From positions 1 through 56,728 of the forward strand of contig CAYLYQ010000008.1 in assembly GCA_964388105.1 (NCBI GenBank): a DNA stretch of 56,728 bases, read 5' to 3'. Within the stretch, counting starts at the first letter, position 1, and each line of letters starts with the position of its first letter. This document shows, in pieces, positions 24,674-35,978 of this stretch. The stretch is from an uncultured Acidimicrobiaceae bacterium. Lineage in GTDB: Bacteria; Actinomycetota; Acidimicrobiia; Spongiisociales; ZC4RG35. Made by a program: the position numbers and the translations under genes. The notes beneath the pieces were generated by a model that was given only the letters and a program-made list of their open reading frames with translations, was not told the DNA's origin and made no database searches.

Positions 24674-25969
24674 CTATGAAGCCCTGACCGGTGGGCAGAC
24701 CCGGGTCTGCTCCTGCCAGAGGCGATCGACCAACCGCCCCTCTGGAAGCTCGACGTCATCGAAGGTCAACAGCGAGTCCTTGCTTACGGCCCGTGTGAGG
24801 CGGGCCCCCTCCGCGAGTCCCATGGGAAGCAGACCCTCCTCGGCGACCTGGCTGGCGTTGGCGCACTGACCGTAGGTCATGTAGAAGCCGATCCCGTCGA
24901 TCACCTCGCCGGCCTCGAGGTCCTTCTTGGCGGTCGCCACGACATCGACCACATGTCCCACGTCCGGAGTCACCGTGGGGTCATGGTGGTCGACTGCCCG
25001 CGCGATCGATCTCGGTGCCTCCAGGTGGCACAGGTGATAAGGGGTGTAGAAGAGATAGAGCGGGCCGTCTCCGAGCTTGTACAGCTCCAGCCATCTCCGT
25101 TGGAAGGGCTCGTCGGTGGTGCCCAGGCAGAAGACCCCGGGTGCGGGTTCGGCACCCACCAGGTAATCGACCAAACCCACTTCCAAGAGCTCGTCGACGT
25201 CGTAGAGCGACGCGGCCTCGGACACATGGTTCGCCTCGTACCCGTAGAGGCCGACCCTGCCGGCCCTCAATCCGGTGGCGTTGGCAACCAATGACATCTC
25301 GAAGCTCATCTTGGTCCCGTCGGCAAAGCTCGCCGCCATGTTCGGGGTGAGGCCTTTTCGAGTCGCAAAGTCGATTTGGGTCGTGTAGTTCCGATACGGG
25401 TCGTGGAGCCCCTTCAGGTTGCCGAGCAGGACGGGTCGCACCCCCAGCGACGAGGTGAAGTGGTACAAGTTCATCATCACTCCGGGTTGGTCCCCCTCGG
25501 AGTCGGTCAGGATGACGCCGGCATCGTCGGCGTAGCGCTTGAGGATGGGGCCGACGGTTCCCTGCATCTCGGCGTTCATCGTCACCAGGTGCTTGCTCTC
25601 CTCGATGGCCCGCATCGCGATATGGCAGCCGAACTCCACCGCGCCTGTGACTTCCCAGACGACGTCGATGCCTGCGGCTCCGCATGCCATCTCGGCGTCG
25701 GCCGTCACTGCGGGCTGGCCATCCTGGATGGCGGCGTCCAACTGCTCGAGGTCGGTGACGAGGCGAGGGTTGTCCACTCCTGCTTCGGCATAGACGCTGA
25801 CGGCGTTCTCGGCGGTGCGATTGGCTATCACCGAGATCTCCATTCCGGGTACGTGCCTGGTGACCTGATAGGCGAGCGCACGGCCCATGGCACCCGCACC
25901 CACGAGGAGGATCTTTATGGGGTCGCCTTCCTCCTCCCGGCGTCGCAGGGCGCGATCGACGAGTGTCAT
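24674..25969 (-). CDS. NAD(P)-binding oxidoreductase with C-terminal SAF domain (homoserine-dehydrogenase-like, COG4091 type)
   Basis: Rossmann motif ILLVGAGAMGRA. C-terminal SAF-like segment DLEAGEVIDGIGFYMTYG. ATG 25969 overlaps the upstream stop (ATGA). Confidence 0.7.
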   Translation of the reverse strand: MTLVDRALRRREEEGDPIKILLVGAGAMGRALAYQVTRHVPGMEISVIANRTAENAVSVYAEAGVDNPRLVTDLEQLDAAIQDGQPAVTADAEMACGAAGIDVVWEVTGAVEFGCHIAMRAIEESKHLVTMNAEMQGTVGPILKRYADDAGVILTDSEGDQPGVMMNLYHFTSSLGVRPVLLGNLKGLHDPYRNYTTQIDFATRKGLTPNMAASFADGTKMSFEMSLVANATGLRAGRVGLYGYEANHVSEAASLYDVDELLEVGLVDYLVGAEPAPGVFCLGTTDEPFQRRWLELYKLGDGPLYLFYTPYHLCHLEAPRSIARAVDHHDPTVTPDVGHVVDVVATAKKDLEAGEVIDGIGFYMTYGQCANASQVAEEGLLPMGLAEGARLTRAVSKDSLLTFDDVELPEGRLVDRLWQEQTRVCPPVRAS

Positions 25970-26532
25970 CAACGCACCCCCGGCCCGAGGGGGACGGCCA
26001 TTGCGTCGGTGAAGGGAGCCCACGACCTGTCCTTCTCACTCACGACTGTCACCTCAAAGGGCCAGTCGATCTCGAACGCGGGATCGTCATAGCGAAACCC
26101 TCTGCCATGCTCGGGCGAGTAGGGCGCGGTCACCTGATAGGTGAGCTCGGTGTCGTCTTCGAGCGCCTGAAAGCCCTGGGCGAACCCCTCCGGGACGAAG
26201 AGCATTCGGTAATCCCCGGCGCGAAGGGTGGTGCTGTACGCCTGGCGGTAGGTCGGGGATCCCTGCCTGATGTCGATGATGGTGTCGAAGATGGCGCCCC
26301 TGGTGACGCGAAAGAGCTTCGACTCGGCCATCGGGGGAACTTGCCAATGCATGCCCCGCAGCGACCCGGCCCGGCGGCTGAGGATGATGTTGATCTGTGA
26401 GACCGAGCCCGGGAGCGACCTCTCGTTGAATTGCGACGCATCCCAGACCCGTGCGTTGAAGCCCCTCTCGTCCTCGACGGGCTCGATCTGGATCTCGAAC
26501 GCACCCCCGAGTGGCAGCGGTATGAACTCCAC
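25969..26532 (-). CDS. RmlC-like cupin sugar-nucleotide 3,5-epimerase
   Basis: GTG 26532 lies 5 nt after the hddA stop. RmlC-like motifs DERGFN, LRGMHWQ, GAIFDTIIDIR, FVPEGFAQGF. Confidence 0.8.
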   Translation of the reverse strand: MEFIPLPLGGAFEIQIEPVEDERGFNARVWDASQFNERSLPGSVSQINIILSRRAGSLRGMHWQVPPMAESKLFRVTRGAIFDTIIDIRQGSPTYRQAYSTTLRAGDYRMLFVPEGFAQGFQALEDDTELTYQVTAPYSPEHGRGFRYDDPAFEIDWPFEVTVVSEKDRSWAPFTDAMAVPLGPGVR

Positions 26533-26537
26533 TGAGA

Positions 26538-27557
26538 TCAGATGTTGAAGGGAATCGCAACCTGCGACCCGTTGGACTCGTAAGCGACTGGCATCTCTAT
26601 CAACGGGGACAGAGCGTTGCGGACAGCCCGGCGCGCCTTCCGGGGGACGATGAGCATCAAGAATCCGCCGCCGCCCGCCCCGCACAGCTTGCCTCCCAGC
26701 GCCCCTGCGTTGATCGCGGCCTCGTACCAGGCGTCGATCTGCGAGTTGCTGATCCGGCTGGCCAACTTGCGCTTCAACGTCCATCCCTCGTCGAGGATCG
26801 CAGCCAGCTTTTCGACGTCGAACTCGCTGGTCTCCATCAGCCGGCCCAGGTCGTGTGCCTGGTCACGCATCCTGACGAGGATGTCCATCCGATCCTCGAC
26901 GTTCTGCTGTTGCTCCTCGAGGACACCGGACGCGTCCCGTTGGTGGCCTGTCCAGAACATCATCATCGAGTCGAAGAGGCTGTCGAGGTTGTGATTCACA
27001 TGTGATTTGTGCTCGACGGACACGATGCCCTGTGAGTTGAAGGTGAACAGGTTGAGACCGCCGAACGCAGCCGCATACTGGTCCTGCTTGCCGATCGGCT
27101 CGGACAGGATGTCGATCTCGACATGGCTCGCCTCCTCGGCGAGCTGGCCAGGGGACACGCGCTGCCCCTTGAGCATGTGCAGCGCGTTGAGGAGCCCCAC
27201 ACAGAAGGCGCTCGAGCCCCCCAGGCCGGTCGAGGCGGGCACGTCGCCGACCGTCGAGATGAAGATCGGCGGCTCGATGTCGAGGAGTCGGAGGCACTCC
27301 CGAGCGATGTTGTTCTCGATCTCATCGATCGTGTTCACCTCCTCGCTGCGCGAGTAGTTGATCCGGATCGGCTCGAAGAAGAGCTCGGAGTGCGGCTTCA
27401 CCTGGACGTAGACGTACCGGTTGATGGTGGTGGACACGACAGCGCCGGGGTGCTGGCTGAAGAAGGCCGGTAGGTCTGTGCCGCCTCCGGCGAAACTGAC
27501 TCGCAGAGGTGTGCGCGAGATGATGGTTCCCGGCCCCCCGAGACTTGCCTTAGCCAT
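26538..27557 (-). CDS. hddA: GHMP-family D-glycero-alpha-D-manno-heptose 7-phosphate kinase
   Basis: N-terminus RTPLRVSFAGGGTDLP. GHMP motif PASTGLGGSSAF. C-terminal KLCGAGGGGFL. Confidence 0.8.
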   Translation of the reverse strand: MAKASLGGPGTIISRTPLRVSFAGGGTDLPAFFSQHPGAVVSTTINRYVYVQVKPHSELFFEPIRINYSRSEEVNTIDEIENNIARECLRLLDIEPPIFISTVGDVPASTGLGGSSAFCVGLLNALHMLKGQRVSPGQLAEEASHVEIDILSEPIGKQDQYAAAFGGLNLFTFNSQGIVSVEHKSHVNHNLDSLFDSMMMFWTGHQRDASGVLEEQQQNVEDRMDILVRMRDQAHDLGRLMETSEFDVEKLAAILDEGWTLKRKLASRISNSQIDAWYEAAINAGALGGKLCGAGGGGFLMLIVPRKARRAVRNALSPLIEMPVAYESNGSQVAIPFNI

Positions 27558-27999
27558 GCTTCAGGCTCCAGTCGTACGGGATGTCGTTGTCGATCGGGTC
27601 GATGCGGTCCATCTCGTCGGGATCGTGCGGGATGGTGGCGGCATTGGCGAGGATCACCATCTTGTCGCCGTAGGCCTTGTAGCCATTGGCGATGCCAGGT
27701 GGGATCTGCACCAGCACGTAGTTGTCTTCGCCCATGAACACCTCTTGAAGGACACCCTTGGTCGGCGAGTCCTCTCTGAGGTCGTACATGACGAGCTTGG
27801 CCCGACCGCTGATGACAGCGTTGTTGACGAACATCGTCTTGTGTATGTGCCATGCCTTGACCGCACCGGGCCAGGCGCAGGAGAAGTAGATCTCTCCGAA
27901 GCCCAAGAAATGCTCATCGGTCGCCTTGAGCATGTGCATGATCTTCCCGCGCTCGTCGACGATCTGTCGAAGCGGCACGACCTTCACCCCATCGATCAT
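27550..27999 (-). CDS. small RmlC/WxcM-like cupin (putative sugar-nucleotide epimerase/isomerase)
   Basis: Start taken as ATG 27999 (GAGGGGGGA plus 7 nt); GTG 28020 is an alternative. Cupin pattern DERGKIMHML...VKAWHIHK...IPPGIANGY. Confidence 0.7.
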   Translation of the reverse strand: MIDGVKVVPLRQIVDERGKIMHMLKATDEHFLGFGEIYFSCAWPGAVKAWHIHKTMFVNNAVISGRAKLVMYDLREDSPTKGVLQEVFMGEDNYVLVQIPPGIANGYKAYGDKMVILANAATIPHDPDEMDRIDPIDNDIPYDWSLKHG

Positions 28000-28022
28000 T
28001 TCGATGTCCCCCCTCGCCACCC

Positions 28023-29054
28023 CTACCGCCAGCGAAGCTTATCGTCGAGTGCCCCTGATGCCAATAGGTGATTGAGCCATCTGAGGCGGACGAACTTCTT
28101 GCCTTCCATCTCGCTCCCGGCGAGTGCGATGGCCTTGAAGTCCGCGGCGAGCTGCTTGGCGCCCTCGGTTGGGCTCCACTTCCAGTGAAAATCGGGGAAG
28201 GTCCTTGCGAACTTGGAGAAGTCGGCCCGATACGTGCGCTGATCCGCGCTGGCTTCCGATCGGACCTCTACCTCAGCCCCCTCGACGACTCCGGCGGCGA
28301 TGTGGGCCAGGTCGATCACGCGGAGGTTGAACTCGTCGGCCCCGTTGTTGAAGGCCTCGTTGCTGATCAATTCGATCGGGGCTTCGAGCACGTGGTGGAA
28401 GCTCCTGGCCACGTCCTCCACGTGGACAACCGGGCGCCACGGGCTCCCGTCGCTGAGCACCACGACCTTGCCGGTGGTGACGGCCTGGGCGACGAGGTTG
28501 TTCAAGACCGTGTCGAGCCGCATCCGGGGTGACAGCCCGTAGACGGTCCCATTCCTGAGGTAGGTGGGATGGAACGAGGAATCGGCGAGAGCCCGCAACG
28601 CCTCTTCTCCGGTGACCTTGGAGCGGGCATATGCCGTCTCGGGCGCGAGCGGCGCAGTCTCATCGACGGTCTCGAGCGAGCTCATCCCGTACATGATGCA
28701 AGAGGACGAGAAGAGGAACCTCCGCACGGAGGCCGCCTTCGCCATACTGGCCAGCCTGACGGTCGCCTTGTGATTGATGTCCTCGGTCCAGTCCTCGTCG
28801 AGGTTGCCGATCGGGTCATTGGAGAGGGCGGCAAGATGGATGACCGCGTAGAGGTCGGAGAGGTCGCTCCTCTCGACGTCGCGAATGTCCTTGGCCAACT
28901 CCTCGACGGCCAGGTCATCCTCCACCGCAGTGCATTCGTTGAAGTACCCGGTGTCGAGACCCACGATCTGGTATCCCTGGCCGGCGAGGTAGGGCGTCAT
29001 CACCGAGCCGATGTAGCCGCGGTGACCGGTGATGAGCACGGGTCTTGCACTCAT
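28023..29054 (-). CDS. extended-SDR NAD-dependent epimerase/reductase (GalE-like, not a 4,6-dehydratase)
   Basis: Glycine motif ITGHRGYIGS. Catalytic SSSCIMYG and YARSK. No acidic residue at the dehydratase Glu position. Confidence 0.75.
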   Translation of the reverse strand: MSARPVLITGHRGYIGSVMTPYLAGQGYQIVGLDTGYFNECTAVEDDLAVEELAKDIRDVERSDLSDLYAVIHLAALSNDPIGNLDEDWTEDINHKATVRLASMAKAASVRRFLFSSSCIMYGMSSLETVDETAPLAPETAYARSKVTGEEALRALADSSFHPTYLRNGTVYGLSPRMRLDTVLNNLVAQAVTTGKVVVLSDGSPWRPVVHVEDVARSFHHVLEAPIELISNEAFNNGADEFNLRVIDLAHIAAGVVEGAEVEVRSEASADQRTYRADFSKFARTFPDFHWKWSPTEGAKQLAADFKAIALAGSEMEGKKFVRLRWLNHLLASGALDDKLRWR

Positions 29055-30269
29055 CTAAAGCGCCTCGTCCTTGAGCTCGCCATCGAGGAGGAGCTCGACG
29101 GCGTCTATGAGCGGAAACTGCTCGGTCACCAGCGCCCCGCGGCCGTCGATCGCGCGGGCGGCCTCGAGGTCCCTGGTGTCGTCCCCGATGAAGAAGGTGC
29201 GGGTGAGATCGAGGTCGAAATCCCTCTGAGCCTCCGCCAGGAGCCCTGGTCGGGGCTTGCGACAGAAGCATCCTTCATCCCAGTCATGGCGGCAGGCGTA
29301 GAAACCGTCGATCCTCCCGCCCGCCTGGGCTGCGGTGTACATCATGTAACCGGTTACCTCGTCGAGGTCGAGATCGGTCATTTTACCCCTCGCCACCCCG
29401 GCCTGATTCGAGACCACGATCGTGCGCCATCCCGCTCGGTTCAGTCGCTCCAGGGCCTCGAGCGACCCCGGGATCCATCGAAAATCCCTGGCGCTGGTCA
29501 CATACTCGGCCCGGGGAGGCCGCTCGTTGAGCACCCCGTCACGGTCGAGGATCACCGTGGGCACCCTGGCGAAGAACCGATGGGTCAGGGGCAGCCGCCG
29601 CAAGTTCCCGACGCTGTAGTAGCGATGCTCGGACCAATAGGCGGCGAGCTCGCGATCTTCGGCAAGAGGTTGGTACACGGCCACTTCGAACAGGTCTTCG
29701 GGTCGCTCCTCGAGTAGAGGCATCGCGGTGGCTTTGTCGATGATGGCGTAGGAGATCTCGACCCCGCTCAGGCCCTCCGTCTGCCGGGCACGATCGAAGA
29801 CGGTCACCAGGTCGTCCTCCACCTTCACCGACGACGTCGTGTACCCGTCGCGATTCGCATACACGACGACCTGGCAAGGCTTGCCAAGAGTGAGGTACTG
29901 GTCCCACATCCGTTCGAAGGACATCGGCCAGTAGTTGTCGCAATAGAGGAGGAGGAACTTGTCATCGAGGAGGTCGGCGGCATCGATGACGCGGTGCGCG
30001 GTGAGCGCCTCCGCCGGCGTCACCCGGTATGTGATGGAGGCCCCGAACCTCGAACCGTCGCCCAACTCAGAGATGAAGGCGTCAGGCTGCCATCCCAGCA
30101 GGAGCAGCACTTCGGTGAATCCCTGATCCACGAGCATCTCGATCACATAGGCGATGAAGGTCCGGTCGTGAAAGGGGATCAGGGCCTTGGGCACGTCATC
30201 GCTCAAGGGGCGAAGGCGCGTGCCCATGCCACCGGCCAGGATGACGGCCTGGGTTGGTCTCGAACTCAC
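29055..30269 (-). CDS. bifunctional heptose-1-phosphate nucleotidyltransferase (HddC-like) / heptose 1,7-bisphosphate phosphatase (GmhB-like)
   Basis: GTG 30269 overlaps the gmhA stop (GTGA). N-terminal ILAGGMGTRLRPLS. C-terminal HAD motifs DRDGVLN, SNQ, GDD, and the GmhB zinc motif CRH...CFCRKP. Confidence 0.8.
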   Translation of the reverse strand: MSSRPTQAVILAGGMGTRLRPLSDDVPKALIPFHDRTFIAYVIEMLVDQGFTEVLLLLGWQPDAFISELGDGSRFGASITYRVTPAEALTAHRVIDAADLLDDKFLLLYCDNYWPMSFERMWDQYLTLGKPCQVVVYANRDGYTTSSVKVEDDLVTVFDRARQTEGLSGVEISYAIIDKATAMPLLEERPEDLFEVAVYQPLAEDRELAAYWSEHRYYSVGNLRRLPLTHRFFARVPTVILDRDGVLNERPPRAEYVTSARDFRWIPGSLEALERLNRAGWRTIVVSNQAGVARGKMTDLDLDEVTGYMMYTAAQAGGRIDGFYACRHDWDEGCFCRKPRPGLLAEAQRDFDLDLTRTFFIGDDTRDLEAARAIDGRGALVTEQFPLIDAVELLLDGELKDEAL

Positions 30270-30862
30270 GTGGTGGATCGGTCCTCGATCAAGCAGGTGG
30301 TGATGATGTCGGTCAGGACCGAATGAGCGCTCTCGACAGGGCCGTAGAGCCCCGACGGGCTCTCCACGAAGACCTTGATGTCGACCTGTTCCTTGAGGGC
30401 GCCTCCGTCGAAGCCGAGGAGTGCGAGTGTGGTGACGCCGTTGGCCGTCGCCCATTTGGCGGCATTGACCAGGTTCGGGCTCGAACCGCTACAGGAGATG
30501 AGCACGAGGAGGTCTCCGGGCTCGGCGAGGTTCTCCAACTGGCCACTGAACACCCTTTCGTACCCCTCGTCATTGGCGAGGGCGGTCAGCCAGGAGACGT
30601 TGTCGGAGAGGCAGACGACCTTCAGTGGCGGCGTCCCGTTGGTCTTGGTGGCCTTGCCGAGGTCGTTCACGAAATGCGTGGCGGTGGCGGCAGAACCGCC
30701 GTTCCCGGCGACGAAGATGCGCCTACCCTCGTCGCGGGCGGTGCGGAGCGCATTCGTCGCGGAGAGGATCTCGTCGACCGCGACACCGTCGAGAAGCTCG
30801 CGCAGCGTCGTCAAATAGCGATGTGTGACGTCAGCGACGTCTGCAATAGATACGGTAGACAC
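30266..30862 (-). CDS. gmhA: SIS-domain sedoheptulose-7-phosphate isomerase
   Basis: GmhA signature FVAGNGGSAATATHF plus LISCSGSSPN. Confidence 0.85.
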   Translation of the reverse strand: MSTVSIADVADVTHRYLTTLRELLDGVAVDEILSATNALRTARDEGRRIFVAGNGGSAATATHFVNDLGKATKTNGTPPLKVVCLSDNVSWLTALANDEGYERVFSGQLENLAEPGDLLVLISCSGSSPNLVNAAKWATANGVTTLALLGFDGGALKEQVDIKVFVESPSGLYGPVESAHSVLTDIITTCLIEDRSTT

Positions 30863-31077: not shown

Positions 31078-32676
31078 GTGCTGACGGACGCCCGTTCCCT
31101 CCAGGCCGGGGCCGTTGTCGAGTCCGAGATTTGCGTCGTCGGTGCCGGGCCGGCCGGAATCGCGCTGAGCAACGAGCTCGATGCCGCAGGCAAGACGGTC
31201 ACACTCGTGGAGGCCGGCGGGCTGGGGCGTCGCGACTCCCCAAGAGAGCTGGCGGTAGGTGAGAGCGTCGGCGAGAGCTACTTCCCGTTGCACAAGACCT
31301 TCGTGCACGGCTTCGGCGGCACCTCGAATCACTGGTTCGAAGGGGAGGGTTTCCGCACCCGACCCCTCGACCCGATCGACTTCCAACGACGTGCTGCGGT
31401 TCCTCACTCGGGATGGCCGTTCGGCCACGAAGAACTCGAGCCGTACTACGCCCGCGCCCAGCGATTCCTCGGCGTCGGGGAACATCCTTACGAGGTCTCA
31501 GGCTGGGAGGAGCTTGACGGGGCAATGCTGGACCTCGATCCCGCGATCCTCCAGTCCGTCGCGTTCTTGGTGATCCCGGGCACCGGGGTGGCGCACTACC
31601 TGGCCCAGGTCGAAGCTTCCCAGAGCTTGCGCCTGGTCTACAACGCCCACGCCGCGAGGCTGGACACGACCGATGGCGGCGATCGCGTCACCGAATTGGT
31701 GGCGCGGGTCCCCGGAGGGAGCGAGGTCAGGGTTCGCGCCGGGAAGTACGTCCTGGCATGTGGCGGGTTCGGGAACGCGAAGCTGCTCCTGTTGAGCACG
31801 GGACATGACCCTGCCGGCCTCGGCAATGGGTCGGACGTCGTAGGGCGCTACTTCATGGAGCACATCGGGCTGAGGGGCGGCAGGGTCGAGCCCACTTCGG
31901 CCAGTCCCCTGAAGAACCCCACGAGCCCCTATTTCGCGGTTCACGGGCAGCCCCTTTCCGTGCACACACTGCTCAGCCTCGCCCCCGAGGTCCTGGAGTC
32001 GGAAGGGCTTCTCAACGGGACGTTCTTCTTCGAGAGGATGCCGATGAGCCGCACGACGCAGGCGGTGCGTTCGTTCGTCGTCCTGCGGCGGGCGATCAAT
32101 TGGCGTCCTCTGCCTCGCGACCTCGGTGCGCATTTCGTGAGAGCCCTCTCCGGGATCCCTTCGATTGTCAACACGGCGGTGTATGAGGCCACCGGGAGGG
32201 GGACAGCCGACGGCATTCAGATGATGGCGATGGCGGAGCAGGCACCCAATCCTGACTCCAGGGTCACCCTGAGCGACAAGGAGAACTCGCTCGGGATCCC
32301 CCGTGTGAGGCTGAATTGGCGGCCCACCAGCCAGGACATTTCGTCGATCCTCAGGAGCGAGGCCATCATCGCCGAAGCGTTGCGAGACGCCGGGATCGCG
32401 CGGGTGCATGACCCGCTGAGCTCCGAGGACGTGAAATGGCATATGTCGGGCCAGTGGCACCACCTGGGAACCACGAGGATGGGCCTGACCCCGGATGAGA
32501 GCGTCGTAGATCCCGACTCCAGGGTTCACGGGATCGACAATCTGTGGGTGACCGGGGGATCCGTGTTCCCCACGGGGGGTTATGCCAATCCGACGCTGAC
32601 CTTGATCGCATTGGCATTGCGCCTCGCCGACAGCCTCAACAGGGGCTCACCGGTGGCGGTCTCAGAAGGTCAGTAG
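31078..32676 (+). CDS. GMC-family FAD-dependent oxidoreductase
   Basis: FAD motif VVGAGPAGIALSNEL...LVEAG. C-terminal GMC region HHLGTTRMG and GGSVFPTGGYANPTLT. GTG start 6 nt after GAGGAG. Confidence 0.8.
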   Translation: MLTDARSLQAGAVVESEICVVGAGPAGIALSNELDAAGKTVTLVEAGGLGRRDSPRELAVGESVGESYFPLHKTFVHGFGGTSNHWFEGEGFRTRPLDPIDFQRRAAVPHSGWPFGHEELEPYYARAQRFLGVGEHPYEVSGWEELDGAMLDLDPAILQSVAFLVIPGTGVAHYLAQVEASQSLRLVYNAHAARLDTTDGGDRVTELVARVPGGSEVRVRAGKYVLACGGFGNAKLLLLSTGHDPAGLGNGSDVVGRYFMEHIGLRGGRVEPTSASPLKNPTSPYFAVHGQPLSVHTLLSLAPEVLESEGLLNGTFFFERMPMSRTTQAVRSFVVLRRAINWRPLPRDLGAHFVRALSGIPSIVNTAVYEATGRGTADGIQMMAMAEQAPNPDSRVTLSDKENSLGIPRVRLNWRPTSQDISSILRSEAIIAEALRDAGIARVHDPLSSEDVKWHMSGQWHHLGTTRMGLTPDESVVDPDSRVHGIDNLWVTGGSVFPTGGYANPTLTLIALALRLADSLNRGSPVAVSEGQ

Positions 32677-34944
32677 ACGGAGCACCGCCCGCACCGGAAG
32701 CCAACGCAGCGACCATCCTGCGTTCCGGACGTTCTCGTCCCCGAAGAGCCCCATCACCCGTTTGGCGCCGCGGCGGTCGAGCTCTCGAAGTCTCCGCCAA
32801 GCTCCCGCCAGGACGAACTGGTGGAAGAGCGCTGCTTTGCGCCGGCGCAACTCGGAGTCGGTCAGGAGACCGGTGCGCGAGGCGCGCTCGAATATCACTT
32901 CGAGTCGCGAGATCGTCTCGGCCCGAAACATGCCTTCGGTGAGGGCTCCGGAGTGGATCGTGTAATTGGCCGAGATCTGAGGCAGGCACAGCACGCCGTA
33001 ACTTGCGAATAGACGGACCCACATGTCCAGATCCGTGGGGTTCTTCAGGTCCGCGTCGAACTGGCCCACCGCCTCGTAGGCGGCTCGCCGGGCGACCAAT
33101 CCGGGGAAGCGGACCCAGGAGGAATCCGTGAGAACGCGGCGCAGAGCCTCGACAGGGTCGAGCCTGGTCGGCCGAAGGAATCGCTGTGTCTTCTTCGTCT
33201 TCCCCGACCCGTCGACCACCCTGACCCCGAAGAGCAGGACCATGTCGTCCGGATGAGTGTCGTAGATCCCCTGCAAGATCGGTAACGCGCCCTCGGCCAG
33301 GGAGTCGTCGTCGTGGAGGATCAGGAGCCAAGTCCCCCTTCCCAGCTCGAGGCAGAGGTTGAAATTCTCCTCGGCGGTGACAGCGGGGTCGTTGTGCACA
33401 TACCTCGTTGGACCGTTCCACCTGGCGAACAACTCGTCGAGTGTGGTCAGGGTCTTGGGTGAGGCGGAGTTGTCGCTGACCACCAGCTCCACTGTCCCGT
33501 CGGGGGGATGGGGTGCGTCGATGACGGAACGCAGGCAGGCCTCGAGGAAGTCAGGCCGCTCGTATGTGGGGATGCAGATGCTCAGGAGGGGTGTCCCTGG
33601 AGGCGCGTCGACTGTGCCGGAGGAATGGCGAACCGGCTCCGGTGGGCGGTCGAGCTCATTGCGTTCACTTGGGCCCGCTTCCTTCGACCCATCCCTGAAG
33701 AGGCGGCGCGCGGAGAGCCCCAACGAGACGCTCCTCGCCAGCCAGCCGGCTCCCCAAGCGATTGGCAATGTGAACGCCTGCCAAACCGGGGCGAAGGCGC
33801 CGGTGAGGATCTCCATGCCGGCACCGGTCGCCTCACTGGCAGCGATGTGCCTCTGTCGCTGGCCACCGAGCAGCTCAGATCTCCAGGGCAGGGCCGTGTT
33901 GTAGAGGATGGTCCCGATGATGGCGATCGCCACCAGCCCGTTGACTGCATAGGCGTTGGGCAGCAGTTCCACCAGCGGGTTGAGCGACCAATTGAATCCG
34001 ACGAGGGGGAGGTAGAGAAGCCCGCCGATCAAGCTGATGATCCAGAATTGCTTCCTCGCCACCCGAGCCTTCTGATGGTCTACCGTCATCCCGGCTTCGA
34101 TCGAGCGAGGACCGATCACCGCGATCAAGCCCAGACCCAGGATCGCGACGGGTCGGGCCACGACTCGCGCTCCCTCCGCGTACCCGAGGATCTCGGCCCC
34201 CACCAAGGCGTTGGCAATCACAGCGACGAGGAAGTCGGCACCAACGAAGCTCAGGTTGGCGACGAGCAGCCAGCGGCCCATCGTCGTGAGCTCCAACCAG
34301 GCGGGGGCCTCCAGGGTCTCACCCGAGCGTCGTCGCAATGGAAACGTCAGAAGCAGGGCAGATACCGAAGACATGAACAGTCCGATGGCCAGCGATCCGA
34401 ATGGGACCCATGCCGGAGTGGCCGTCCTGTGGAGGATGAAGACCCCTATCACGGTGCCGATGACAGCGACTGTCGAGGTGATCGCGGCGCTCCACGACGA
34501 GTTGCTGATGTGGAACATCTTCCGCCAGTGCTCCTGGAGCGGGGCGAGCACCGTTATGGCGGCGCCGGTCAGCGTCAAGGCCCAGATGTCCTCGCTCGGG
34601 ACGTCTCTGACCAGTGCGGCCGAAGCGAGGATGCCCACCGCTCCAAGTATCGAGATCAGCAGGCCTCGCCTGACGCTCGAGTCGAGGATCTGGATCCGGG
34701 AAGGCTCGGGTCGGGCCACAGCCAGGACCTCAGAGGGAGTGAAGACCAGCTCGGAGGGAATGGACCGGGCAAAGTTCCAGGCGGTGAATACGACCACGTA
34801 GGCGCCGAGCAGGGTGGCGTCGAACACTCTCACCGCATACAGGCCAATGATCAGGGTGGCGATCGCCGACAGGGCGGTGTCGATCTGACCCGCCGAGACG
34901 GTCTTGATCGTCTGTGGTCTCATGCCGCCGCGGCGCGCCTGCAC
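32662..34944 (-). CDS. fusion protein: Wzx/MOP-type polysaccharide flippase-like N-terminal domain + family 2 glycosyltransferase C-terminal domain
   Basis: About 440 aa with 12-14 predicted TM helices. Then a linker, then GT2 motifs SICIPTYERPDFLEACLRSV, VSDN and ILHDDD. The start is GTG 34944 or ATG 34923. Confidence 0.7.
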   Translation of the reverse strand: MQARRGGMRPQTIKTVSAGQIDTALSAIATLIIGLYAVRVFDATLLGAYVVVFTAWNFARSIPSELVFTPSEVLAVARPEPSRIQILDSSVRRGLLISILGAVGILASAALVRDVPSEDIWALTLTGAAITVLAPLQEHWRKMFHISNSSWSAAITSTVAVIGTVIGVFILHRTATPAWVPFGSLAIGLFMSSVSALLLTFPLRRRSGETLEAPAWLELTTMGRWLLVANLSFVGADFLVAVIANALVGAEILGYAEGARVVARPVAILGLGLIAVIGPRSIEAGMTVDHQKARVARKQFWIISLIGGLLYLPLVGFNWSLNPLVELLPNAYAVNGLVAIAIIGTILYNTALPWRSELLGGQRQRHIAASEATGAGMEILTGAFAPVWQAFTLPIAWGAGWLARSVSLGLSARRLFRDGSKEAGPSERNELDRPPEPVRHSSGTVDAPPGTPLLSICIPTYERPDFLEACLRSVIDAPHPPDGTVELVVSDNSASPKTLTTLDELFARWNGPTRYVHNDPAVTAEENFNLCLELGRGTWLLILHDDDSLAEGALPILQGIYDTHPDDMVLLFGVRVVDGSGKTKKTQRFLRPTRLDPVEALRRVLTDSSWVRFPGLVARRAAYEAVGQFDADLKNPTDLDMWVRLFASYGVLCLPQISANYTIHSGALTEGMFRAETISRLEVIFERASRTGLLTDSELRRRKAALFHQFVLAGAWRRLRELDRRGAKRVMGLFGDENVRNAGWSLRWLPVRAVLRLLTF

Positions 34945-35153: not shown

Positions 35154-35516
35154 TCAGGGGGTGTCGACGCTGGCACTCTGCGGGCTCTCCGGGGTCGTGG
35201 GCGACTCCGGAGTCGTGGGCGACTCGGGGGTGTCCGGCGTGTTCGGCGTCACCGCACTTGCGGTTGCCGTTCTGAGCGAGTCGAACGGCGAGTCGTGAGT
35301 TGGGTCCAGGGGCCCGAACGAGACTCCTGGGATGCCGGGGGCGGTGGTCGTGGTCACCTGCGTGATCTCGGTGCGATCGCTGAGGTTGATGGAATCGGGA
35401 TTCGATCCGTTACTGCCTGGCTGGGCTATCGCCAGTCCGGTGATCCCGATGGCGGAGACCGCGGTCACCGCCGTGACGACCTTCCAGTTCCTCTTGACTT
35501 GGTCCTTGAGCTGCAT
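35154..35516 (-). CDS. secreted/anchored acidic protein with TPESPT repeats (paralog 1)
   Basis: 120 aa. N-terminal hydrophobic signal WKVVTAVTAVSAIGITGLAIA. Conserved blocks DSINLSDRTEITQVTT and DSPFDSL. Repeat tail. Clear paralogy with the next gene. Confidence 0.7.
   Translation of the reverse strand: MQLKDQVKRNWKVVTAVTAVSAIGITGLAIAQPGSNGSNPDSINLSDRTEITQVTTTTAPGIPGVSFGPLDPTHDSPFDSLRTATASAVTPNTPDTPESPTTPESPTTPESPQSASVDTP
35178..35249 (-). repeat. in-frame 18-nt tandem repeats encoding TP(D/E)SPT units
   Basis: The unit gactccgg(a/g)gtcgtgggc recurs about 3-4 times and encodes TPNTPDTPESPTTPESPTTPESPQ. Confidence 0.8.
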
Positions 35517-35543
35517 CGTCCGCTCCTACTGGGCTCTCGTCGT

Positions 35544-35978
35544 TCAGGGAGAGTCGACGCTGGCGCTGTCCGGAGAGTCAACCGAATCCGGCGAGCTCGG
35601 CGAGTCGGGCGTGTTCGGTGAGTCCGGGGTGTTCGGGCTGTCCGGCGAGTCCGGGGTGTTAGGCGACTTGGGTGAGTCGGGGGTGTTCGGCGAGTTCGGG
35701 CTGACCGTGTTCACGCTGGCGGTCGCCGTGTTGAGCGAGTCGAACGGCGAGTCGTTCGTGGGATCGAGATCACCGAAGGTGACTCCGGGAATCTGCGGGG
35801 AGGTGGTGGCCGTGGTCACCTGTGTGATCTCGGTGCGGTCGTTCAGGTTGATCGAGTCCACATCCTTGGCGTCAGACCCAGGGGCTGCAGCCGCAAGGCC
35901 GCTGATACCGATGGCCGAAACTGCGGTGGCCGCTGCCACGACCTTCCAGTTCTTCGTGATTTGTTCCTTGAGTTGCAT
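35544..35978 (-). CDS. secreted/anchored acidic protein with NTPDSP repeats (paralog 2)
   Basis: 144 aa. Same N-terminus (MQLKEQITKNWKVV...) and the same conserved blocks as paralog 1. Longer repeat tail. Both end in SASVD(T/S)P. Confidence 0.7.
   Translation of the reverse strand: MQLKEQITKNWKVVAAATAVSAIGISGLAAAAPGSDAKDVDSINLNDRTEITQVTTATTSPQIPGVTFGDLDPTNDSPFDSLNTATASVNTVSPNSPNTPDSPKSPNTPDSPDSPNTPDSPNTPDSPSSPDSVDSPDSASVDSP
35571..35702 (-). repeat. in-frame degenerate 9/18-nt tandem repeats encoding (N/D/K/S)(T)PDSP units
   Basis: The unit gagtccggggtgttcgg and variants encode SPNSPNTPDSPKSPNTPDSPDSPNTPDSPNTPDSPSSPDSVDSP. Confidence 0.8.

Follow-up and report, generated by a model that had tools for sequence, protein, structure and literature searches.

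In Campylobacter jejuni, the enzyme Cj1427 oxidizes C4 of guanosine diphosphate (GDP)-heptose by a ping-pong mechanism in which the bound cofactor is regenerated by alpha-ketoglutarate, yielding L-2-hydroxyglutarate (PMC10680097). In septacidin biosynthesis, the heptose 4'-hydroxyl is oxidized by SepI, a GMC-family FAD enzyme (PMC9978623). A third described enzyme, the DRL (DXR-II) of Brucella abortus, holds a substrate analogue by the anchors Lys191, Lys193 and Thr229; the 2013 study that split the DXR-II-like oxidoreductases (DLOs) DLO1 and DLO2 from DXR-II left their function unassigned, and four DLO representatives failed to complement a DXR-deficient mutant (PMC3847144). Here we analyze a window of 56,728 nucleotides from an uncultured Acidimicrobiaceae bacterium (assembly GCA_964388105.1, contig CAYLYQ010000008.1, positions 1 to 56,728), in which a single operon encodes a Cj1427-like short-chain dehydrogenase/reductase (SDR), two cupins and a DLO together with the enzymes of heptose activation. 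On balance, we favor a pathway in which a nucleoside diphosphate (NDP)-heptose is made, oxidized at C4 by the SDR, epimerized, and then reduced at C4 by the DLO to give a non-deoxy product.

The operon and its Cj1427-like SDR

The open reading frames (ORFs) of the window and their Pfam and NCBIfam matches define seven head-to-tail genes on the minus strand, from 30862 to 24674. Because neighboring stop and start codons overlap or abut, the seven genes form a single operon with translational coupling. The stop codon of gmhA runs into the GTG of the HddC-GmhB fusion gene (GTGA), the ATG of the SDR gene abuts the stop of the fusion gene, the small-cupin and kinase genes share 8 nt, and the stop of the large-cupin gene overlaps the ATG of the oxidoreductase gene (TGATG). 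Promoter and terminator scans of the operon gave no signal exceeding that of shuffles. The initial annotation had placed an SDR, two cupins and a Rossmann plus SAF oxidoreductase in a tailoring set at 24674-29054; ORF and Pfam checks bear out all four genes on the minus strand, but its title leaves out a GHMP kinase encoded among them at 26538-27557.

The SDR (343 aa; 28023..29054, minus strand; PF01370, 150 bits) is the proposed NDP-heptose C4-dehydrogenase. It displays the GHRGYIG, SSSC and YARSK motifs and so carries the extended SDR fold set; the SSSCIMYG and YARSK readings of the initial annotation come straight from the translation. Its claim that the operon lacks a dehydratase also stands. 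The SDR scores 40 on the dTDP-sugar 4,6-dehydratase model TIGR01181 (cut-off 365), 24 on the CDP-sugar model TIGR02622 (cut-off 278) and 18 on the GDP-hexose model TIGR01472 (cut-off 415), and it reads S-S-S-C-I-M-Y-G, with Cys-Ile at the position of the dehydratase Asp-Glu pair. A role as an NDP-hexose 4,6-dehydratase, the alternative that the initial annotation had named as a refutation, is rejected on both the model scores and the residue pair.

The top NCBIfam match of the SDR is galE (81 bits). Its top solved homologue in a single-sequence search is 6VO6/6VO8 (E 1e-23), entries titled as Cj1427, the C. jejuni NAD-dependent dehydrogenase, with NADH and GDP-D-glycero-D-manno-heptose. When a profile of 23 SDR orthologues is compared with solved structures, Cj1427 (6VO6) scores 172 bits (E 2e-49), the runner-up 6WJB 107 bits and the dehydratases at most 80 bits. 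An SPRM-R-L/F-D motif is common to the SDR family and Cj1427, and the structure model of the SDR, with a predicted local distance difference test score (pLDDT) of 92, matches 6VO6 with a Z of 35.5. As judged by sequence, the closest characterized relative of the SDR is the C4-dehydrogenase Cj1427, by a wide margin.

Heptose activation is covered by three genes. The first gene of the operon encodes a GmhA-like sedoheptulose-7-phosphate isomerase (198 aa; 30266..30862, minus strand; SIS_2 PF13580, 69 bits), whose top NCBIfam matches are gmhA/phosphoheptose isomerase models at 95-98 bits, under the equivalog cut-offs. It is followed by a fusion of an HddC-like nucleotidyltransferase and a GmhB-like heptose-1,7-bisphosphate phosphatase (404 aa, GTG at 30269; 29055..30269, minus strand; NTP_transferase and HAD-IIIA), which scores 150 bits on the GmhB model (cut-off 178). 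The kinase (339 aa; 26538..27557, minus strand; GHMP_kinases_N and _C) is an HddA-like heptose-7-phosphate kinase, with HddA as its top NCBIfam match (146 bits, cut-off 600). Thus, all four heptose-activation domains are present as best or near-best family matches, each under its NCBIfam equivalog cut-off.

These genes, with those of the SDR and the small cupin, also travel without the rest of the operon. Homologues of the small cupin number more than 5,600, with 78-99% identity among the 120 matches listed. We sampled 80 metagenome loci of this kind. The SDR gene immediately precedes the small-cupin gene in 58 of 62 loci, and the kinase gene immediately follows it in 61 of 65. Upstream of the SDR, the HddC-GmhB fusion is present in 38 of 39, and gmhA keeps its position in 23 of the 32 related loci. 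Past the kinase, where 37 loci have enough sequence, 19 carry an NDP-sugar C-methyltransferase and nine an RmlC-like cupin, seven of these with a DLO too, while the C-methyltransferase module and the cupin/DLO module never occur together (0 of 37). C-methyltransferases of the PF08421/PF08484 type act on 4-keto sugars, and for this reason the SDR appears to supply a 4-keto-heptose hub that is finished by alternative modules. The C-methyltransferase (PF08421 plus PF08484) is often trailed by a DUF4910/DUF2172/HTH_47 protein and a classical short-chain reductase. This version is found in L070 (7132-14781), L062, L067, L068 and 15 further metagenome loci, and the combination suggests a C-methylated heptose.

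The DXR-II-like oxidoreductase, the cupins and related cassettes

The last gene of the operon (24674..25969, minus strand) encodes the DLO, a 431-aa protein with DRL_cat (PF21135, 156 bits) and SAF (31 bits) domains, for which we propose the role of an NAD(P)H-dependent 4-ketoreductase. Its full length aligns with Brucella abortus DRL/DXR-II (PDB 3UPL; E 4e-63, 33-40% identity), and its AlphaFold model (pLDDT 87) matches 3UPL with a Z of 48.2 and a root-mean-square deviation of 2.1 A over 420 residues; DXR-I and the homoserine and inositol dehydrogenases follow with Z values of at most 18. The protein therefore has a homoserine-dehydrogenase/DXR-like fold and not that of an SDR, and would be a functional analogue of Cj1428/MlghC and RmlD. 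Of the three Brucella anchors, Lys191 is kept, Lys193 is replaced by Leu and Thr229 by Met; across 25 aligned DLO orthologues these positions read K, L/M and I/M. DLO conservation is high, with a mean column identity of 74% across phyla. The Met at 229 and a Tyr at 250 fit the published DLO1 description (hydrophobic 229, non-His 250), and Gloeobacterales loci are among the close DLO relatives. With two of three anchors replaced and a canonical DXR in the genome, we rejected DXR-II as the identity of this protein. The initial annotation knew of no link between this enzyme class and heptose chemistry, which agrees with our findings: DLO is of unassigned function, and we found no paper tying it to sugars.

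We collected 55 loci (numbered with an L) with DLO relatives at 49-68% identity, and rebuilt their neighborhoods by ORF clustering and tblastn. The loci come from Cyanobacteria, Alphaproteobacteria, Gemmatimonadota, Chloroflexota, Bacteroidota, Verrucomicrobiota, Gammaproteobacteria and Actinomycetota. The recurrent ORF families are DLO itself (53 of 55 loci), the RmlC-like cupin (42), the SDR (41), a 257-aa nucleotidyltransferase (32) that scores 468 bits as a glucose-1-phosphate cytidylyltransferase (cut-off 300), and a flavoprotein of about 404 aa (31) that scores 628 bits as an L-2-hydroxyglutarate oxidase (cut-off 299). About 40 loci, drawn from seven phyla, combine the SDR, the RmlC-like cupin and DLO; of 49 informative loci, about 42 have the cupin gene immediately upstream of DLO. 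The genes typically run transferase, oxidase, SDR, cupin and DLO, within polysaccharide clusters that contain glycosyltransferase, Wzz and Bac_transf genes. The complete five-gene cassette is seen in L009 (2394-11314; Anabaena azotica FACHB-119), L011, L013, L015, L016, L024, L029, L050 (Chryseolinea sp. H1M3-3) and others, and is spread over polysaccharide clusters of Cyanobacteria, Bacteroidota, Chloroflexota, Verrucomicrobiota and Gemmatimonadota.

Because the L-2-hydroxyglutarate oxidase acts on the exact by-product of Cj1427, its position beside a Cj1427-like SDR is the strongest indirect support for a mechanism of the Cj1427 type, coupled to alpha-ketoglutarate. Where cassettes are split (L008, L009, L010, L027, L031, L046), it is mostly the oxidase that keeps to the SDR and the cupin that keeps to DLO. 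By analogy, the cassette layout (activate, oxidize C4, epimerize, reduce) would be a non-deoxy counterpart of RmlA-D, with DLO assigned to the last step because no other conserved NAD(P) enzyme remains. This layout predicts a non-deoxy cytidine diphosphate (CDP)-L-hexose as the product of the CDP-glucose cassette, a product of which we found no description.

Three Rhodobacterales loci (L003, L005 and L006, the last from the cultured Oceanibium sediminis O448) have the complete seven-gene order of our operon, and on the shorter contigs L002 (Nitriliruptoria) and L004 (Geminicoccaceae) the captured part is arranged likewise; the closest relative of the operon is L002, from a Nitriliruptoria metagenome-assembled genome. 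Among the metagenome loci, L072, L078 and L085 have the same seven genes with an extra gap of about 0.9 kb, and L077 and L087 agree as far as they are captured. The operon is thus a mosaic of the very common five-gene heptose/SDR/small-cupin block and a cupin-DLO pair that elsewhere finishes CDP-glucose cassettes. In the heptose locus L125 and in L116, an L-2-hydroxyglutarate oxidase (545 bits in L125) and the cupin precede a second PF01370 SDR in the place of DLO. This looks like non-orthologous displacement and favors DLO as a ketoreductase, from two loci only.

The DLO sequences themselves vary with the precursor. In same-strand heptose operons the motifs are NAE-x-Q-GT (Leu in L077) and GN(L/M/I)KGLHD, whereas in CDP-glucose cassettes they are NAELDGT and GNIKGLQD; the exceptions are L123 and L124, where the pair is inverted beside a heptose block and has hexose-type residues. 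The KGL(H/Q) motif is the counterpart of the K191-G-K193-N loop that anchors the substrate analogue in the Brucella enzyme. Since the residues of the substrate loop follow the type of precursor, the alignment suggests that DLO binds the sugar nucleotide itself. Two other arrangements of DLO genes were observed. Aphanocapsa lilacina (L030:9917-12794) has tandem DLO paralogues (55% and 51% identity to the window protein) downstream of a single SDR-cupin pair. Four Nodosilinea/Leptolyngbya loci (L038, L040, L041, L042) have a DLO (52% identity) whose surroundings, to 10 kb on each side, lack the SDR, cupin, transferase and oxidase, and this sub-group may have a different partner or substrate.

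The two cupins of the operon, the only PF00908 genes in the genome, are dissimilar. The larger one (187 aa, GTG start; 25969..26532, minus strand; PF00908, 181 bits) is a proposed C3/C5 (or C5) epimerase. It scores 143 bits on the rmlC model TIGR01221 (cut-off 155.75), matches RmlC in the PDB with E 3e-34, and carries His, Lys, Tyr and Asp at what we take to be the catalytic positions of RmlC. Its being the RmlC of a housekeeping rhamnose pathway was considered and rejected, as a profile search of the genome found no RmlB or RmlD over cut-off; for the same reason, we regard this cupin as probably RmlC-like in mechanism but not a member of the rhamnose pathway. The small cupin, a divergent RmlC-like protein (PF00908, 47 bits; minus strand), is 156 aa long from a GTG (27550-28020) or 149 aa from the ATG at 27999 (27550..27999), the latter being the length of nearly all homologues listed, and is proposed to epimerize the 4-keto intermediate. 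Its top PDB match is 3EJK, to which no function is assigned there, and it weakly matches the Cap5F cupin domain and GDP-4-keto-heptose 3-epimerases. When aligned to the larger cupins by MAFFT, it has the His in register (WHIH) but neither the Tyr nor the Lys. It may act as a C3 epimerase, another epimerase or a keto-isomerase.

Proposed pathway, alternatives and genomic setting

The pathway that we favor would run in seven steps. Domain-level homology suggests that GmhA isomerizes sedoheptulose-7-phosphate and that the HddA-like kinase and the GmhB domain then produce heptose-1-phosphate, which the HddC-like domain would activate to NDP-D-glycero-D-manno-heptose, GDP being assumed as the nucleotide. 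From homology and context, the Cj1427-like SDR would oxidize C4 to give the NDP-4-keto-heptose, and its bound NADH would probably be re-oxidized by alpha-ketoglutarate with formation of L-2-hydroxyglutarate. A single L-2-hydroxyglutarate oxidase passes the cut-off in the genome (484 bits). It is encoded on another contig (C7:36941-38101, L058) and could recycle this by-product; its neighbors there are a 3-hydroxyisobutyrate-dehydrogenase-like gene and a short-chain reductase, with no sugar genes. The small and the RmlC-like cupins would epimerize C3 and/or C5 of the 4-keto intermediate, and DLO, by elimination and context, would reduce C4 with NAD(P)H. The expected product is an L-configured or otherwise epimerized D-glycero-heptose for a glycosyltransferase. 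That DLO stands in, without homology, for the SDR-type C4-reductases (Cj1428, RmlD) seems to us rather more probable than any other role.

The general chemistry put forward in the initial annotation, namely C4 oxidation, epimerization by cupins and C4 reduction to a non-deoxy heptose, remains the best supported, with the roles of two enzymes exchanged. It had cast the SDR as the C4 reductase and the SAF-domain enzyme as an unusual C4 (or other) dehydrogenase. The SDR is more likely the C4-dehydrogenase, as the family profile prefers the dehydrogenase Cj1427, about 30 loci have the oxidase as a neighbor, and the SDR occurs in many loci without the SAF enzyme. Since the SDR reads as a dehydrogenase and also occurs without it, the SAF enzyme is more likely the C4-ketoreductase. 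For action of the SAF enzyme on an unrelated substrate, the other refutation named in the initial annotation, we found no indication.

Several points weigh against this pathway. The heptose gene scores fall short of the NCBIfam equivalog cut-offs, and all the steps after activation are ones that we infer. The SDR has only 27-30% identity to Cj1427, and the fold Z fails to discriminate, with 35.5 for Cj1427 and 33-35 for about 50 other SDRs, including GalE-type epimerases. The small cupin is without the RmlC-type Tyr and Lys, so that, as far as the alignment goes, its role as an epimerase may be doubtful. The L-2-hydroxyglutarate oxidase is absent from this operon and from the syntenic Rhodobacterales loci, and in three Bacteroidota loci it adjoins DLO and not the SDR. 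The role of DLO as a reductase is based on elimination, synteny and the two displacement cases. Finally, the GMC-family oxidoreductase encoded next door (31078..32676, plus strand; GMC_oxred_C, 91 bits) shares its superfamily with the heptose 4'-oxidase SepI.

This last gene brings up a different division of labor, in which C4 is oxidized by DLO or the neighboring GMC flavoenzyme, leaving the SDR to act as the C4 reductase or as a GalE-like epimerase. We consider this unlikely. The SepI precedent is joined by a GMC gene both beside the operon and near DLO in six loci, and the SDR has GalE-like motifs, galE as its best NCBIfam match and an undiscriminating structural Z; however, the SDR family profile favors Cj1427 by 65 bits over the other solved SDRs, and the SDR/small-cupin block occurs in at least 30 amply flanked loci that have neither DLO nor GMC. 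Also, the C-methyltransferase that follows this block needs a 4-keto sugar, the L-2-hydroxyglutarate oxidase usually adjoins the SDR whereas the GMC gene is near only some DLO loci, and the substrate of SepI is an adenine-linked heptose rather than an NDP-sugar. A little less likely still is that DLO acts as a DXR-like reductoisomerase, rearranging an NDP-4-keto sugar (by an alpha-ketol or a retro-aldol/aldol route) and then reducing it, so that the sugar becomes branched or its ring contracts. We count three points in favor of this possibility: dihydrostreptose and apiose are precedents for 4-keto sugars whose ring contracts once an RmlC-like step has taken place, the only solved relative, Brucella DRL, performs such a rearrangement plus reduction, and the 74% conservation of DLO is above the usual level of a simple reductase. 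Two of the three DXR-II anchors are lost, though, four DLOs failed in DXR complementation (PMC3847144), and an ordinary SDR replaces DLO in L116 and L125.

It is improbable that the cupin-DLO pair is unrelated to heptose, acts on another sugar or a non-sugar substrate, and came to lie downstream by accidental insertion. The stop/start overlaps with the upstream genes and the recurrence of the seven-gene order elsewhere argue against this, and DLO residues differ systematically between same-strand heptose operons and hexose cassettes. In addition, we found no RfbF and no second Cj1427-like SDR in the genome, and since RmlB and RmlD are likewise missing, the pair has no other visible feeder. What speaks for an independent pair is that it is missing from most heptose blocks and otherwise occurs in CDP-glucose cassettes, and that the four cyanobacterial loci L038 and L040-L042 have DLO with neither SDR nor cupin. 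Scarcely credible is that the protein works as a DXR-II and produces methylerythritol phosphate: the fold is that of Brucella DRL at 33-40% identity, but Lys193 has become Leu and Thr229 Met, a canonical DXR is encoded in the genome, the gene lies inside sugar operons in about 40 loci, and earlier DLO representatives failed in complementation.

Within the assembly (2.2 Mb in 123 contigs, 93% complete), the operon has the look of an accessory island that was acquired, and two observations are consistent with horizontal transfer. The more telling one is that a search of 40 related genomes did not find the small cupin; the other is a real but small dip in G+C content, from 66-69% in the flanks to 62-64% inside the operon (26000-30000). 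A DLO homologue is found in only one of 11 congeners, at 51% identity.

Three neighboring regions may be relevant to the pathway. GMC homologues (31-36% identity) lie near DLO in L003, L005, L025, L027, L123 and L124, and in none of the DLO-free heptose loci; the divergently encoded GMC enzyme of our window could serve as an additional or alternative oxidase, or stand in for the missing L-2-hydroxyglutarate oxidase. Beyond it, a 760-aa membrane protein fused to a GT2 glycosyltransferase (32662..34944, minus strand) has a Glycos_transf_2 domain at residues 455-618 and a hydrophobic amino-terminal half without a Pfam match, and by its position may be a user of the operon product. Further on (35154-35978, minus strand), two small ORFs (120 and 144 aa) lie side by side; their products, which match no Pfam family and have repeats rich in Pro, Ser, Thr and Asp, are possible targets of glycosylation.

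Comparison with known pathways

The logic of the proposed pathway is already known from Campylobacter. We found no report of a DXR-II-like enzyme as the reductase, of the link to L-2-hydroxyglutarate oxidase, or of the wide distribution of heptose- and CDP-glucose-fed cassettes; a literature search, with most subscription journals outside it, found no paper tying DLO/DRL_cat or L-2-hydroxyglutarate oxidase (LhgO) to sugar nucleotides. Our analysis gives the DLO families a concrete, testable function in the last reductive step toward non-deoxy, stereo-inverted sugars. It also suggests that alpha-ketoglutarate-coupled C4-dehydrogenase chemistry is widespread in environmental bacteria, with its own enzyme for recycling the by-product. 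If this is true, the polysaccharides of the many cyanobacteria, Bacteroidota, Chloroflexota and others that carry the CDP-glucose cassette would be predicted to contain unrecognized L-hexoses, and enzymes would become available for making rare heptoses and hexoses. Should DLO rearrange its substrate, which we think unlikely, the operon and the CDP-glucose cassettes would lead to a branched-chain or ring-contracted sugar along a previously undescribed route.

The operon resembles the Campylobacter heptose pathways in having a heptose activated by HddA/HddC-type enzymes, no 4,6-dehydratase, a Cj1427-related SDR and RmlC-fold cupins, and in the logic of oxidizing C4, epimerizing and reducing C4 to a non-deoxy product. 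It differs in that the proposed reductase is DXR-II-like and not an SDR, that there are two dissimilar cupins rather than one, that HddC and GmhB are fused, and that the host is an uncultured bacterium with a high-GC genome of 2.2 Mb. Relatives of the operon also carry an L-2-hydroxyglutarate oxidase in the cassette, whereas we know of no report of this enzyme in Campylobacter clusters. With the dTDP-L-rhamnose pathway (RmlA/B/C/D), the CDP-glucose cassettes share a four-step layout of activation, 4-keto formation, 3,5-epimerization and reduction. The 4-keto sugar of the cassettes would, however, arise by dehydrogenation and not by 4,6-dehydration, so that O6 is kept; the cassettes imply alpha-ketoglutarate as the oxidant and an oxidase that recycles the by-product, and their last enzyme is not a homologue of RmlD.

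DLO has in common with Brucella abortus DRL (3UPL, 3UPY) the three-domain fold, the DRL_cat and SAF domains and Lys191. Unlike DRL, it is without Lys193 and Thr229 and is encoded in sugar-nucleotide operons rather than among isoprenoid genes, in a host that has DXR-I. The septacidin L-heptosamine pathway differs in that the Sep enzymes use an adenine-linked heptose, end in transamination and include no DLO, and in that the Sep epimerases are TIM-barrel and VOC proteins instead of cupins; it nevertheless offers a parallel in its 4-oxidation followed by C5 and C3 epimerization, in its use of non-canonical enzyme families (PMC9978623), and in the GMC gene that lies near our operon.

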